From NCBI GenBank assembly GCA_003151795.1, contig PLYL01000024.1:4953-68952 (forward strand): a stretch of 64,000 nucleotides of DNA. Direction: 5' to 3'. Shown one piece after another: positions 42,395 to 46,318 of the stretch (the stretch's first letter is position 1; each line of letters opens with the position of its first letter). A program made the translations under genes and the position numbers. Below the pieces are notes generated by a model, which had not been told where the DNA came from, ran no database searches, and saw only the letters and a program-made list of their open reading frames with translations. The DNA comes from Candidatus Yanofskybacteria bacterium (GTDB taxonomy: Bacteria > Patescibacteriota > Minisyncoccia > 2-02-FULL-40-12 > GWA2-44-9).

Positions 42395-43927
42395 TTAAGA
42401 CCACCAGCACTTAACCCGAGTGGCCCGCAAAATTTCAGAATGGGTTTCTGGAGCGAAAACTGGGTCGGCGCGAAGCGCCGACACTAATGCATTCCCCCCG
42501 CCGAATTCAGAATCCAAAAGGGTTTTCCACGCTCCGCGTGGCTCAAAAAGTACGGTTCGATCCTTAATTTGAAAGTTCGAACCGACTTTTTTGAACAAAT
42601 GAGTATTTTCCTCATTTGTTCGGTCGTTTGCCAATTCCATATTGTATTTCAAAAACTTTTCCGTAAGTTCGAACCGATTATTCGCTTTTTGCTCAAAAGC
42701 CGATAATTTCTCTTTGAGAAGCTGATTTTGGTTAACCAACTTGTTTTTAGCTTCCCGATATTCTTCGAGCGACAACGCACTTTCGAGATAGGCACTCATC
42801 AGCTTCTCTATTTTGGAATCCAAAAGAGAAATATCGGCTTTTATACTATCTGCAAAAAGCGTACTCGATTGGACTTCCGATTGCCGATCTTTTGCATTTT
42901 CGGCAATCATCCATTCTGTCCAATCGAGAGGCAAAGAAACTTTTTTGATTTCCTCTTGAATTTGAGAAGTGATGAGCTCCTCACGAACATATCTCTGCGA
43001 GCAAGGATTTTTCCGTTTGGTACATCGCAAATAGTGATGTCCTTTTTGTTGCTCGGTAGTTATAAAACAGCCACATTCTCCGCAACGGAAAAATCCTCTG
43101 TAGATGTATGGCTTCAATCCTTTGCTATGCGGTTTAGATTTTCGGCTCATCACTTCTTGGACTGTATCAAAAAGTTTCTTTGTGATAATCGGTTCATGCT
43201 TACCTTCAAAAATCTCACCGTTATACCTCATGAGACCAGTGTAAATAGGATTTTTGAGAAGTTTTTGATAATTCGACACCGCAAGCTCTCTACCGCTTTT
43301 TCGCTTCAATCCAAGCGCGTTAAATTTGTCGCGGACTTCGCGCAAAGTGAAGTTTCCAGTTGCGTATGCCTCAAATGTCTTTTTAACTAAAATCGAAAGT
43401 TCGGGATGTGGCACGATACCTCTTCCTTTCTCGTTCACATATCCAATCGGAGACATTTGAGGCCATATTCCTTCCTTCACTTTGTTTCTATGTCCGCGCT
43501 TAATATTTTCAGATAAATTGTCCACATAATACTTGGATTGCGAAAAAGCGATTGAGAGCATGAATTTTCCTTGCGGTGTCGGATCAAACCAAAAAGTTGG
43601 GAATTTCATTTCTGAAATTACTCCAGTATCAACGAGGTAGATGATTTTCCCTCCATCTACCGAGTTGCGAGCAAGTCTATCGGGATGCCACGCCAAAATA
43701 CCAGACGCTTCGCCTTTTTCCATACGCGACATCATTTCATTAAACACCGGACGACCTGGTATTTTGGCGGTCTGCTTTTCGACAAAGACATCTACCACTT
43801 CCAGTTGTTCTTTCAACGCTAAATCTTTTAACTCACTTAGTTGGTCAGAAATACTGCGGACTTGTCTGTCTTTGTCGTCCGTAGACTTGCGAGTATATAT
43901 GAAAAACTTTTTGGTTTGATTATTCAT
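42395..43927 (-). CDS. Large serine recombinase (second copy, homologous to the one at 18726-20051)
   Basis: N-terminal catalytic motif (YTRKSTDDKDRQVRSISDQ), a recombinase domain, a Cys cluster (CGECGC...C), and a coiled-coil region. Its last roughly 40 codons lie inside an 84-bp inverted repeat. Confidence 0.85.
   Translation of the reverse strand: MNNQTKKFFIYTRKSTDDKDRQVRSISDQLSELKDLALKEQLEVVDVFVEKQTAKIPGRPVFNEMMSRMEKGEASGILAWHPDRLARNSVDGGKIIYLVDTGVISEMKFPTFWFDPTPQGKFMLSIAFSQSKYYVDNLSENIKRGHRNKVKEGIWPQMSPIGYVNEKGRGIVPHPELSILVKKTFEAYATGNFTLREVRDKFNALGLKRKSGRELAVSNYQKLLKNPIYTGLMRYNGEIFEGKHEPIITKKLFDTVQEVMSRKSKPHSKGLKPYIYRGFFRCGECGCFITTEQQKGHHYLRCTKRKNPCSQRYVREELITSQIQEEIKKVSLPLDWTEWMIAENAKDRQSEVQSSTLFADSIKADISLLDSKIEKLMSAYLESALSLEEYREAKNKLVNQNQLLKEKLSAFEQKANNRFELTEKFLKYNMELANDRTNEENTHLFKKVGSNFQIKDRTVLFEPRGAWKTLLDSEFGGGNALVSALRADPVFAPETHSEILRATRVKCWWS
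42461..42544. repeat. Inverted repeat A, copy 1 (84 bp; inside the 3' end of the recombinase gene)
   Basis: Reverse complement matches 43949-44032 at 83 of 84 positions. Weaker similarity continues about 45 bp further, to about 42425. Confidence 0.9.
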
Positions 43928-43948
43928 AGAATTGTATTGGCAAACGAC

Positions 43949-44032
43949 GAGCCACGCGGAGCGTGGAAAACCCTTTTGGATTCTGGATTCGGCGGGGGGA
44001 ATGCATTAGTGTCGGCGCTTCGCGCCGACCCA
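43949..44032. repeat. Inverted repeat A, copy 2 (22 bp upstream of the recombinase start codon)
   Basis: Reverse complement of 42461-42544. It encodes an alternative, diverged recombinase C-terminal tail in ORF 43841-44122. Confidence 0.9.
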
Positions 44033-44064
44033 GATTTGCGTTCAGAAACCCTTTTCGAAAAATT

Positions 44065-44264
44065 GCGGTGTGTATTGAACGAAGTTCGAATGTATTTTGA
44101 ATTGAATCCTGATGCAGAATGATGCGCGCCTCGGACACGCTCGCGGACTCGCGTGTGCAAAAACCAAAAAATTTCCTTGCATTTTTCTCGCGTCTCCTCC
44201 CCCCACCCCTCCGCCGCGAAGCGGAAAAAGAAATGGAAAGGAAATTTTTGGTTTTGCTTCGCCG
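44065..44264. repeat. Inverted repeat B, copy 1 (200 bp)
   Basis: Reverse complement matches 45971-46170 at 199 of 200 positions. It contains an internal 20-bp hairpin (gcaaaaaccaaaaaatttcc / ggaaatttttggttttgc) and a C-rich tract. Confidence 0.9.
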
Positions 44265-44339
44265 TAGTCATAAATTCAGTTTATCACAATAATCTAAAAT
44301 GGTATATTCCATTTCCGACTATATTATGTTAATATCTAT

Positions 44340-44558
44340 ATGTCGAAGAAATACCAAGCAAAATATCAACACCTTACCGCAAAACTCCGTTCCGCTCGCC
44401 AAGAGGCAGGTTTGACGCAAGTAGAGGCAGGAAAACTATTGAAGAAACCTCAGGCGTATGTTTCCAAGATAGAGCGGGGCGAGCGCGGAGTTGATGCGGT
44501 AGAATTAGCGGAGTTTGCAAAGGTCTACAAAAAAGATATTAACCATTTTATAAAATAA
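44340..44558 (+). CDS. XRE-family HTH transcriptional regulator
   Basis: 72 aa with the classic Cro/C1 HTH (LRSARQEAGLTQVEAGKLLKKPQAYVSKIERGER). Confidence 0.7.
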   Translation: MSKKYQAKYQHLTAKLRSARQEAGLTQVEAGKLLKKPQAYVSKIERGERGVDAVELAEFAKVYKKDINHFIK

Positions 44559-44562
44559 CAAT

Positions 44563-45195
44563 ATGACTATTCTTTACATATTTCTGGCAATAATTGCCTT
44601 CATACTTTGGAAAATTTATCGTCAAAAAGAAGACGAGAAACAAGCTACTGCTGATGAGAAATTTGACGCTGAATGGGAGATAAAGAAAGAAGCAGAGAAA
44701 AAAGAAAAATTTAAAGATTATCCTCATTTGATAGGAAATATGGACGATTCTTATCTCGAAATTTACGCTCATAGAAAAGAGTTAAATTTAAAACAGGCGT
44801 GGCAAAGTTATGCATATGAGGCTAATAATCCAAAATCAGACAGTGCGGAAGTAGATATGTTATTTCATTCGTTATGGGATATTACAGAGGAATTTCTTGA
44901 ACACTTAGAAAAATATCATGAAAGCACAAAACACGAATATGAAATAGCGATTAATAATTATTGGCGGATCGTTGCAGAAGAGGCCAAATCCTTTGATGGA
45001 AAAGATACTGAAACTATTAAAAAGATTTTTCAATCCTCACCATTTACCGATATACAAAAAATTGCTTTATGGTTTCCCAAAAAATCTAACCACTCAGAGA
45101 AAGAAATTACTTTTATCGACGAAAATGGTAATTTCCCCAGAAAGTCAGAGGGTTCTAAACTTATTGATGAACGGCTAAAAGCACTTGGACTTTAG
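44563..45195 (+). CDS. Hypothetical protein with an N-terminal transmembrane helix
   Basis: 210 aa with a transmembrane anchor followed by a charged helical domain; sits in the cargo between the 200-bp inverted repeats. Confidence 0.35.
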   Translation: MTILYIFLAIIAFILWKIYRQKEDEKQATADEKFDAEWEIKKEAEKKEKFKDYPHLIGNMDDSYLEIYAHRKELNLKQAWQSYAYEANNPKSDSAEVDMLFHSLWDITEEFLEHLEKYHESTKHEYEIAINNYWRIVAEEAKSFDGKDTETIKKIFQSSPFTDIQKIALWFPKKSNHSEKEITFIDENGNFPRKSEGSKLIDERLKALGL

Positions 45196-45712
45196 AGTAA
45201 TGTACCCTATGACTTTATCAGATTTTATTTTGCTAATCACGGGAATATTTATTGCATGGCAAGCGTGGGAAACACGCCAATTGGCGAAGCTGACGAGAAT
45301 TAAAGACCAACCACTTTTAGAAGTTGAATTTCAAAATAGTGGGGCAAAAGTCCAATTAAAAAATATCGGACAATCTCCCGCATATTCACCGTCAATCAGT
45401 TCGATTGAAATTGCAACAAACGAACATTTAGATTTTGACCCTTTGCACACTTCTCGCTTACCAATACAGCTCGGCGAAAGCCGAGAAGTATGGATGCATC
45501 ATCAGAAAGTAAATGAGGGATCAATCGGCGGTTTCGTTGAAAGCGCACCAGTTTTGAAAAACTTTTTAATAAATAAAGATACTCCCACAAAAATCACTCT
45601 GCAATATTTTGATAAAGATGGTGTTAAACTTTGTCGTGATTTATATATAAAAGTTAGTGGTAATAAAATAAGTGGAAACCAACAGATTTATACGACGACA
45701 AGTTGCGAGTAA
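45185..45712 (+). CDS. Hypothetical protein with an N-terminal transmembrane helix
   Basis: 175 aa; overlaps the previous ORF; followed by a hairpin at 45720-45760. Confidence 0.35.
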   Translation: MDFRVMYPMTLSDFILLITGIFIAWQAWETRQLAKLTRIKDQPLLEVEFQNSGAKVQLKNIGQSPAYSPSISSIEIATNEHLDFDPLHTSRLPIQLGESREVWMHHQKVNEGSIGGFVESAPVLKNFLINKDTPTKITLQYFDKDGVKLCRDLYIKVSGNKISGNQQIYTTTSCE

Positions 45713-45719
45713 GGGAGCA

Positions 45720-45760
45720 ATCCCCGCCGTTTTATAATATCTCCTAAAAACGGCGGGGAT
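45720..45760 (+). terminator. Terminator-like hairpin
   Basis: atccccgccgtttt / aaaacggcggggat, a 14-bp stem with a 13-nt loop, immediately after the cargo genes. Confidence 0.5.
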
Positions 45761-45970
45761 TTGTGCGCGCACAGGGCGGGTGGGGCAAGCACATACAGAT
45801 TTGTTTGTGCCATGCACAATCCGCTTTATGAGTTAGCACGACCAGTGAACGAAGCCACAGAGTCTCAAGTTACCACTAAACGCGGAGAGGAAGCGCCTCG
45901 GTCGCCGTGAGGGTGGAGAAAAGAGCAAACAAAAATGTTAAAATAAGATTGCTCTTTTCGGAGACTGAAA

Positions 45971-46170
45971 CGGCGAAGCAAAACCAAAAATTTCCTTTCC
46001 ATTTCTTTTTCCGCTTCGCGGCGGAGGGGTGGGGGGAGGAGACGCGAGAAAAATGCAAGGAAATTTTTTGGTTTTTGCACACGCGAGTCCGCGAGCGTGT
46101 CCGAGGCGCGCATCATTCTGCATCAGGATTCAATTCAAAATACATTCGAACTTTGTTCAATACACACCGC
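45971..46170. repeat. Inverted repeat B, copy 2 (200 bp)
   Basis: Partner of 44065-44264. The 84-aa and 97-aa ORFs called across both copies are translations of the repeat. Confidence 0.9.
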
Positions 46171-46318
46171 CAATGGTTTTTTGGTGATAAACCGCACTGA
46201 TTAAGCTTAAAAATCGCTATTGACTTTTAGTCTTAATCAGTGATACAATCGAAAGGTTAAAGATCTTGGAGTCCACAAGTCGTGGAATCTGGACAATTCA
46301 ATAAAAGGAGAGGGAGCG

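Follow-up and report, generated by a model that had tools for sequence, protein, structure and literature searches.

Large serine recombinases (LSRs) of phages and of integrative and conjugative elements, such as the integrases of phiC31, Bxb1, A118/LI and SPbeta (SprA), as well as TnpX of Tn4451 and TndX of Tn5397, share a three-domain architecture and recombine attP with attB at a short core within a specific target gene. Serine integrases are valued as simple and one-directional. Here we analyse an LSR locus in a 64,000-nucleotide stretch of Candidatus Yanofskybacteria bacterium (assembly GCA_003151795.1, contig PLYL01000024.1, forward-strand positions 4,953 to 68,952), referred to as the window; all coordinates are those of this 64-kb stretch unless a related locus is named. 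An earlier note on the window had described two pairs of long inverted repeats around the LSR gene and a three-gene cargo, and had interpreted them as a self-rearranging switch that swaps the C-terminal tail of the recombinase and flips the cargo. We propose that positions 42425–46170 probably represent an integrated 3.75-kb LSR-driven element that belongs to a very large family in Patescibacteria, whose attP region a.b is split into attR (a/flank) and attL (flank/b), and which carries a second a.b, inverted, upstream of the LSR gene.

Although the enzyme is of the same kind as the serine integrases, and the offset of a TTCGAA motif in its P' arm recalls the longer attP half-site of known LSRs, the family differs from these systems in several respects. 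The elements are only 3–8 kb long and are devoid of phage or conjugation genes; crossover takes place inside the open reading frame (ORF) of the recombinase, so that integration would replace its C-terminus; a complete second attP lies inverted upstream of the gene; only one half-site per attachment (att) site is conserved; and no directionality factor is evident. In the Hin, Gin, Cin and Pin switches, a serine recombinase gene is likewise found beside or inside a segment bracketed by inverted repeats, and in the Hin system it lies within the invertible segment itself. These switches use enzymes of ~190 amino acids (aa), 26-bp sites and a Fis-bound enhancer. In contrast to such small proteins with a C-terminal helix-turn-helix (HTH), the window recombinase has 510 residues and LSR domains, and instead of short crossover sites there are repeats of 120 and 201 nt that end at integration junctions and occur with a strong orientation bias.

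An altered C-terminus is reportedly also a feature of the integration-dependent immunity that Broussard and colleagues described in 2013 for the mycobacteriophages BPs, Brujita and Charlie, where attP lies in an ORF. Similarly, the attP core of the present family is located within an ORF, and integrated and free forms would differ at the C-terminus. In BPs-type systems, however, a tyrosine integrase interrupts the repressor gene and an ssrA-like degradation tag is lost, whereas here the serine recombinase itself is interrupted, and its native tail (…VRMYFELNPDAE) does not resemble such a tag. An excised circle is predicted from the integrated layout; like the 2-micron plasmid with its FLP/FRT system, it would contain a recombination site in each of two long inverted repeats, so that either unique segment could be flipped. 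FLP, however, is a tyrosine recombinase that acts on identical sites. Cargo modules that occur in both orientations and on different LSR backbones are as expected of exchange between inverted sites and thus recall recombinase-mediated cassette exchange, which is an engineered procedure; an engineered phiC31 landing pad flanked by attP sites was among the matches of our literature search. Finally, Islander-type tRNA islands insert into tRNA 3' ends, which are restored by the element, and form tandem arrays at one tRNA. The family shares these properties, but only about 4–6 nt of the target tRNA come from the element, and the window copy is not situated at a tRNA. A passage of PMC4383910 attributes tRNA islands mostly to tyrosine integrases. 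A full-text literature search of partial coverage yielded no publication that describes this family or any LSR with an inverted attP copy inside the element.

Results

Repeat pairs and element boundaries

An inverted-repeat search, followed by base-by-base inspection, recovered both repeat pairs where the earlier note had placed them (Table 1). Pair A (42425–42544 and 43949–44068) comprises 120 nt with 11 mismatches (91% complementary), ten of them at 42431–42459 and one at 42507; the 84-nt near-perfect core with a single mismatch that the note had reported for this pair is correct as a part of it. Pair B (44065–44265 and 45970–46170) extends over 201 nt and has a single mismatch at 44081. The two pairs are neighbours, as had been stated, but they do not merely abut, since their arms share the four nucleotides GCGG (complement CCGC in the outer arms). 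Likewise, the hairpin described within pair B is present, yet it is no 20-bp structure but an imperfect inverted repeat of 25 nt (84%) whose arms are 46 nt apart, and the upstream copy of pair A ends 21 nt, not 22, before the ATG at 43927. No further copy of either segment was found within the window, which excludes a chance origin of the repeats. The anatomy on which the switch had been founded, with LSR body and cargo each bracketed by long inverted repeats capable of inverting them, is correct.

The recombinase and its C-terminal tails

Domain matches confirm that the gene encodes a large serine recombinase. Pfam locates the catalytic domain PF00239 (E = 8.8e-19) at residues 9–154, PF07508 (Recombinase) at residues 180–262 and PF13408 (Zn_ribbon_recom) at residues 276–327. 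Among the entries of the Protein Data Bank (PDB), 3g13, 3guv and 9dxh cover residues 8–236, residues 208–424 align with the C-terminal domain of the A118/LI integrase (4kis/6dnw), and the SPbeta integrase is matched as well. Together, these hits point to a zinc-ribbon domain with a predicted coiled-coil insert.

A protein search with the window LSR returned 7,221 homologues at E ≤ 1e-20, and the tails of the best 120 were compared. These proteins are 82–96% identical to the query, measure 494–647 aa and, where named, all stem from Patescibacteria. They are collinear as far as '…FWR / …EKLR / …EILR' and differ only beyond this point. In 79 of the 120, the chain ends in 'R.RDSNPR…', the antisense translation of a tRNA T-arm (GGTTCGAATCC). 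Another 14 display the conserved 'CVLNEVRMYFELNPDxx', which is the tail found in ORF 43841–44122 of the window, and three share '.TRVK…' with the window protein, whose last nine codons (42398–42424, ATRVKCWWS) come from flanking DNA. Because the divergence begins at the position of GCGG, this core marks a recombination crossover within the LSR ORF, at a distance of nine codons from the present stop and of 17 from the native one.

The in-frame alternative tail that the earlier note had recognized in ORF 43841–44122 is therefore real, and its alignment with relatives, which the note had proposed, shows that both this tail and the present one recur. As judged from these sequences, the CVL tail is the native LSR C-terminus of the unintegrated form, and the swap of tails, ascribed in the note to inversion, would occur mainly at integration and excision. 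After the core, the native tail always forms an open frame of 16–20 codons with the pattern R[CY][VL]L[DN][EK]VR.[YF]F..NP… and ends in …NPDAE, …NPDDQ or …NPND. Its coding signature is modest to weak: third-position entropy is highest, and synonymous codon differences amount to 26%, against 16% and 11% in the two alternative frames. In the search for a circle or an empty site, every contig that carries the native tail ended inside b.

Attachment-site junctions and the target of the window copy

The attR junction reads …TTTTGGCGG / AGAGGGAGGGATTCGAACC…, where the right side is the tRNA in reverse, the internal a.b junction …TTTTGGCGG / TGTGTATTGGACGAAGTTCGAATG…, and at attL an unrelated flank is followed by GCGG / TGTGTATTGG…. 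GCGG is common to all three sites in the window and in more than 25 loci, and b starts identically at attL and at the internal copy. This pattern is consistent with recombination of attP and attB at a short common core that yields hybrid attL and attR sites. The attL flank typically features a hairpin and a T-run, as expected of a displaced tRNA terminator, and tRNA calls overlap a by 5–6 nt, so that the tRNA 3' end is restored by the element. The distance of the conserved TTCGAA motif from the core is 6 bp greater in the P' arm than in the B' arm, which is the tRNA side. The B arms bear no relation to one another across loci, and the P arm is hypervariable.

The window copy adopts the usual ground-state orientation of the family at a secondary, non-tRNA site. 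It is inserted at GCCACTCGGGTTAAGTGC, a motif that also comes after the core in L005 (related loci are cited by their handles), and a ParB/N6_N4-methylase gene is nearby in both. The 9-mer ACCCGAGTG occurs three times in the window (18647–18655, 42339–42347 and 42414–42422; 0.19 expected by chance), once in a hairpin loop just past a tRNA-Ser and twice in the left flank of the element, where the last copy is the target half-site; the related ACTCGGGTTAAGT follows the core in L005. About 140 nt to the right of attL, in the dnaG-side flank, very relaxed ARAGORN settings call a tRNA-Ser(CGA)-like sequence (46309–46388, plus strand) that has no Rfam match and is probably spurious. In L012 (8500–8560), the element adjoins a degenerate-looking tRNA-Ser 3' half (…GAGATACGAACCCGAC…) that ARAGORN does not call.

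Layout of the family

One genome per species was scanned, and 291 stretches were found to encode relatives, the best 80 of which were analysed by self-BLAST and ARAGORN. Pair A is present in 70 of these 80 loci (≥99% identity in 41). Pair B lies on the same contig in 28 (≥99% identity in 22), with arms of 89–308 nt and a cargo of 1.5–6.4 kb. A tRNA-Ser is positioned antisense at the LSR 3' end in 62 of the 80 loci, whereas a sense tRNA-Ser upstream is seen in only three; every tRNA-Ser isoacceptor is used across the loci. Along the coding direction of the LSR, the parts follow the order flank / b – conserved non-coding block – variable genes – HTH – b_rc. a_rc – 21-nt leader – LSR – a / tRNA-Ser. 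Two loci that display it, L012 (OY969413.1) and L037 (OZ246398.1), come from records titled complete chromosomes. Since such records and a 42% identical sister clade share the nested design, it is old and conserved, and neither an assembly artefact nor a recent accident. The sister-clade element (L034, 8632–12062) has the same nested organization at a tRNA-Ala 3' end, uses a GTGG core and resides directly beside an element of the tRNA-Ser type. Viral contigs hold only relatives of the LSR that are 23–25% identical, and on this ground identity as a phage integrase was rejected.

The near-perfect repeats, which the earlier note had taken as a sign of recent or ongoing inversion, thus belong to a layout that is the ordinary ground state in dozens of species. 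Relatives without the repeat pairs and a mis-joined repeat collapse had both been named there as outcomes that would tell against the switch; instead, the relatives carry the pairs at the frequencies given above, and the architecture recurs in at least 28 independent assemblies and in the sister clade.

Proposed mechanism

Sequence comparison establishes how the elements are organized, that they share a core, that tRNA-Ser is their usual target, and which classes of tail exist. We propose that the attachment region is a unit a.b of ~320 bp with the crossover core GCGG inside the last LSR codons, where a corresponds to the last 40 element-encoded codons, and b to the final 17 native codons, the stop and a conserved half-site that is predicted to be bound by the enzyme. 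Integration would split this unit: a would stay on the LSR gene as part of attR (42424/42425), so that the gene then reads into the flank, and b would be placed at the far end of the element as part of attL (46170/46171). A second complete a.b is always carried along, inverted, 21 nt upstream of the LSR. Because of the split and the second, inverted unit, pair A represents the tail and internal copies of a, and pair B the outer and internal copies of b. The C-terminus of the LSR is likely exchanged at each integration and excision. The two copies are likely kept identical by gene conversion between the inverted repeats, which is proposed because exchange at the core alone would not homogenize them. 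With less certainty, the internal attP and the long arms may stay recombinationally active and account for occasional inversion of LSR or cargo, tandem accretion and exchange of cargo modules.

Flipped states, arrays and module exchange

Locus L086 has the order tRNA-Ser(sense) / a'_rc-LSR-a.b and hence a flipped LSR with the native tail; its assembly is unambiguous because the two a copies are dissimilar. A pattern search specific for the junction tRNA-Ser(sense) / a_rc-LSR detected it in 20 metagenome contigs. In tandem arrays (L003, L065, L087 and others), the upstream LSR ends in a''.b of the next unit, as would result from recombination of an incoming attP with an a/tRNA junction already in place. 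Cassettes of the type a_rc-LSR-a, without cargo, are located between two convergent, non-identical tRNA-Ser genes in L022 (6780–8584), L024 (6778–8582) and L105, an arrangement which suggests that double-tRNA LSR cassettes arose by chromosomal rearrangement through both attP copies.

In 20 of 22 loci, the HTH gene of the cargo is next to the inner arm; in L077 and L015 it is next to the outer one. A b-cargo-b_rc module recurs in L040 and L077 with 98.5% identity over 2.7 kb but in opposite orientations, whereas the LSRs of the two loci share only 85% identity. Compared with the window, L109 has a dnaG flank that is 100% identical over 4 kb and a cargo that is 99.95% identical but inverted; the 201-nt repeat exceeds the k = 141 of the L109 assembly. 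L111 matches the window in dnaG-side flank, cargo and cargo orientation, and L001, which derives from the same sample as L109, combines an identical LSR and left flank with a different cargo module. As a de Bruijn assembler cannot assign cargo ends to arms, the cargo flip of L109, and to a lesser degree those of L015 and of L077, also in its comparison with L040, fit inversion without proving it. The switch envisaged in the earlier note is therefore partly supported: the alternative states that it predicts exist in nature, both for the LSR (L086) and for the cargo (L077, L015 and L109), but a free-running switch is at odds with the bias of orientation (62/80 and 20/22).

Alleles of repeat a, hairpins and the region upstream of the recombinase

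The two a copies of the window differ in a hypervariable stretch of 36 nt before the core (…PVFAPETHSEILR versus …PDLRSETLFEKLR), and both alleles recur in the family. In 50 comparable loci, the relation between the two copies is bimodal, as they are either identical or near-identical, or clearly mosaic. Relative to hairpin H2, the block that differs is found towards the core in the window and on the opposite side in L077. The window element thus has the appearance of a hybrid between two lineages. In 9–13 of 25 sequences, H2 shows compensatory double changes at three stem pairs, with zero broken pairs. At the protein level these changes exchange Ala and Arg, and selection on H2 appears to act on nucleic-acid structure rather than on the peptide. 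A further hairpin in a, H1 (CCACGC GGA GCGTGG), is invariant; in L038, L061 and L073 its loop is reverse-complemented in the upstream copy (CCACGC TCC GCGTGG), as if the palindrome had been flipped or converted from the other arm. A guide-like role of the hypervariable 36 nt was rejected, since alignment to the adjacent tRNA-Ser scores 7.5 compared with 7.3 for mismatched pairs, and the alleles ignore isoacceptors.

A consensus scan places the best LSR-directed promoter-like site at 44346–44318 (minus strand), beside the HTH start, and an HTH-directed site at 44281–44308 (plus strand); AT-rich palindromic motifs recur upstream of related HTH genes. If the former site is real, the LSR mRNA would carry (a.b)_rc as a leader of ~380 nt, and a flip of the cargo would uncouple the LSR from its promoter. 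Open frames of 115–157 codons run through (a.b)_rc (window 43924–44271, minus strand; L003, 96–515; L087, 4477–4950) and end on the LSR start with an ATGA/TAA overlap. A genuine gene antisense of a.b was rejected because the open frame varies between loci over the same conserved nucleotides; the antisense frame ends only through ATGAATAAT stops in both other frames and has no Pfam match. These open frames are probably not genes, and base composition is the only candidate explanation for their persistent openness.

Cargo genes and the conserved non-coding block

The cargo starts with an XRE HTH regulator, as the earlier note had stated. Relatives carry mostly restriction-modification and other defence- or toxin-type genes, for example ResIII with a methylase, HpaII with a C5-methylase/RadC, a LexA-like gene with a methylase, Fic, UvrD with GmrSD, and AAA_13. 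A conserved non-coding block, designated OCR, is always placed beside the outer arm and is found at the inner arm in the flipped L015. It measures ~200–250 nt, is also seen in L012 (4988–5244), L009 (1639–1895) and L013 (4684–4964), gives rise to spurious ORFs of 49–89 aa in gene calling, and is a candidate origin, small RNA or accessory site. A structured RNA at 45761–45969 was tried and rejected, as the fold displays little covariation.

Table 1. Features of the LSR element and their positions in the window
Feature	Position	Strand	Basis or remark
Whole integrated element, 3,746 bp (probable)	42425–46170	−	attR left, attL right; repeat ends are the points where family members diverge into the flank; layout matched by 28 complete related loci
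Large serine recombinase gene, 510 aa	42395–43927	−	Pfam domains, PDB matches, tail classes
Repeat a, tail copy (last 40 element-encoded LSR codons; P side of attR)	42425–42544	−	Core CCGC at 42425–42428
Leader, 21 nt, between a_rc and the LSR start codon	43928–43948	−	Highly conserved in the family (…TCGTTTGCCAATACAAT…)
Intact internal attP region (a.b), inverted relative to the LSR	43949–44265	+	Core GCGG at 44065–44068; P' arm TGTGTATTGAACGAAGTTCGAATG
Hairpin H2 inside a (GTCGGCGC TTC GCGCCGAC)	44011–44029; second copy 42464–42482		Compensatory changes; divides identical from divergent blocks in mosaic repeat pairs
Native LSR tail CVLNEVRMYFELNPDAE plus stop, in frame with a, no independent gene	44069–44122	+	Found at the C-terminus of 14 of the best 120 homologues
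Putative promoter-like region, divergent, within the cargo segment	44266–44339		Consensus scan
XRE-type HTH regulator, 72 aa, sole conserved cargo gene of the family	44340–44558	+	PF01381/PF13560; family in 22 loci
Variable cargo genes for two proteins (210 aa and 175 aa) that both have a hydrophobic segment at the N-terminus	44563–45712	+	No Pfam match
Strong hairpin, 14-bp stem, terminator-like, at the end of the cargo operon	45720–45760		Seen in the sequence; aligned as a perfect stem
Conserved non-coding block (OCR) beside the outer arm	45761–45969		76–96% identical in about 10 loci with different cargo genes
Repeat b, outer copy (P' side of attL)	45970–46170	−	Core CCGC at 46167–46170

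Other features of the window

A minus-strand gene block (35226–42074) adjoins the element and has the appearance of a phage-like or plasmid-like island. One of its genes matches a transposase/small-terminase-like HTH weakly and below threshold; others encode two N6_N4 methylases and proteins of 588 and 284 aa. Its 426-aa methylase resembles the ParB_N-methylase of L005, a locus with a similar ParB-methylase neighbourhood at the same kind of target. At the edge of an island that holds a small-terminase-like gene and methylases, ~600 nt downstream of tRNA-Phe/tRNA-Arg (35069–35216), a full-length LOOT RNA (RF03000) was identified at 35822–35944 on the plus strand, with 86.6 bits versus a gathering score of 46.4. 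Elsewhere in the window (18538–20051), a second LSR (18726–20051, 441 aa, 33% identical) is oriented antisense beside tRNA-Ser(GGA), ~100 nt from the tRNA 3' end. No long inverted repeats were found around this gene, and tRNA-Ser(GGA) may already be occupied by a different LSR element.

Discussion

Several findings weigh against the interpretation of the locus as an integrated member of a mobile family with an active internal attachment site. The boundaries of the window copy are defined by the repeat ends and by family comparison. No excised circle or empty target site was recovered for this or any other copy, even in a look-up via the 284-aa neighbour, and the cargo genes of the surveyed loci include no conserved candidate for a directionality factor. 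ARAGORN and Rfam gave no match at the window junctions or at the rejoined flanks, the rejoined constructs being a few bases short at the core, and a tRNA or other known RNA was therefore rejected as the target of the window copy; insertion at a tRNA 3' end is a property of the family (62/80 at tRNA-Ser) that the window copy does not share. The variants in cargo orientation stem from short-read assemblies, in which k-mers or reads are shorter than a perfect repeat of ~200 nt, and the contigs of L109 and L111 are both interrupted within an arm. Moreover, the single-nucleotide difference of pair B (44081) remains with the dnaG-side arm in L109; if this flip is real, such a placement implies a crossover inside the arm and favours homologous recombination over crossover at the core. 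The preference for one orientation is strong (62 loci to 3 and 20 to 2), so that flipped forms are minor, rare or transient. Finally, by the rules of serine integrases, recombination of attP with attR or attL is non-productive, and use of the internal copy by the LSR would hence be non-canonical.

The last two points bear equally on the dedicated phase-variation switch of the earlier note, according to which the LSR would invert DNA through pairs A and B and, in a clonal population, would routinely toggle both its own tail and the cargo orientation. This model is unlikely in our view. Although both of its predicted states occur (L086; L077, L015 and L109) and the locus varies among assemblies of near-identical strains, the cargo flips are beyond short-read resolution, 62 of 80 loci have the LSR antisense to tRNA-Ser and only 3 have a sense tRNA-Ser upstream, and 20 of 22 have the HTH gene beside the inner arm. 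Arms that are nearly perfectly identical would fit frequent exchange, yet crossover at the core would not homogenize them. Their ends are junctions of integration that share a core, so that no inversion is needed to explain the repeats. The position of the best LSR-directed promoter-like site inside the cargo segment would allow a cargo flip to uncouple the LSR; canonical LSRs, however, do not recombine attP with attL or attR. The bias of orientation also suits a fixed layout, in which the internal a.b would have only a regulatory or structural function, either as an operator for LSR autoregulation or as a 5' untranslated region that pairs with the 3' end of the mRNA, whereas the repeats would essentially never recombine and the variants would be hybrids or assembly errors. 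The copy is located between the promoter-like region and the LSR start, where it would form a transcribed leader of ~380 nt (fold z = −2.6), the leader and hairpins are highly conserved, and resolvase-type autoregulation via upstream binding sites is well known from the res sites of Tn3 and gamma-delta. A protein site, on the other hand, requires about 50 bp and not 320 bp at 99–100% identity in a stretch that is hypervariable between elements, and the structures of L086, L022, L024 and L105 and of the array junctions involve a repeat of at most 120 nt or non-identical arms, which an assembler can resolve. We regard a purely static duplication as improbable.

It is very unlikely that the repeats serve to rebuild a duplex attP in a single-stranded element, for instance during natural transformation, by pairing of b with b_rc and of a_rc with a, comparable to the folded attP of CTX phage. 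The internal (a.b)_rc is exactly complementary to both element ends, with the junction at the crossover core, and selection for perfect complementarity would explain the 100% identity of otherwise hypervariable regions. There is no evidence of a single-stranded stage, however; the loops would measure 1.4–6 kb, hybrid elements with non-identical arms persist, and serine recombinases cut all four strands of two duplex sites, while the folded site would be nicked at the core. The chance that nested repeats were created by mis-joining or collapse in assembly is close to negligible. The repeats are longer than typical k-mers, and many related contigs as well as L001, L109 and L111 break inside the arms, but the layout is shown by at least 28 independent assemblies, L012 and L037 among them, which were produced in different studies and with different assemblers, and it recurs in the 42% identical sister clade. 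An artefact was therefore rejected for the architecture and is possible only for the orientation of the cargo in any single short-read assembly.

For the integrated element that we favour, candidate reasons for selection of the inverted copy are autoregulation, cofactor-free reversibility, cassette exchange and single-strand fold-back. A bold and rather improbable extension is that the mirrored attP makes a one-way serine integrase reversible without a cofactor, such that the LSR would flip its own gene, accrete or release neighbouring elements and exchange cargo cassettes in the absence of a directionality factor. As attP (a.b) and attR (a/target) have the same left arm, their recombination regenerates the same two types of site. 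If this proposal holds true, the gene would toggle between a state that is linked to the promoter but tail-less and a state downstream of the tRNA with the native tail.

A crossover site within its own gene together with a permanent second, inverted attP would be a new wiring of a serine integrase, and an active internal site would offer a natural model for cofactor-free reversibility and cassette exchange. The single conserved arm per site may be of interest for the re-targeting of integrases. For genome curation, recombinase tails of the type 'RDSNPR…' and the upstream ORFs of 115–157 aa are to be read as by-products of the layout. Biologically, the family is an apparent major carrier of restriction-modification and defence-type genes across many lineages of Patescibacteria, whose means of gene exchange are poorly understood.

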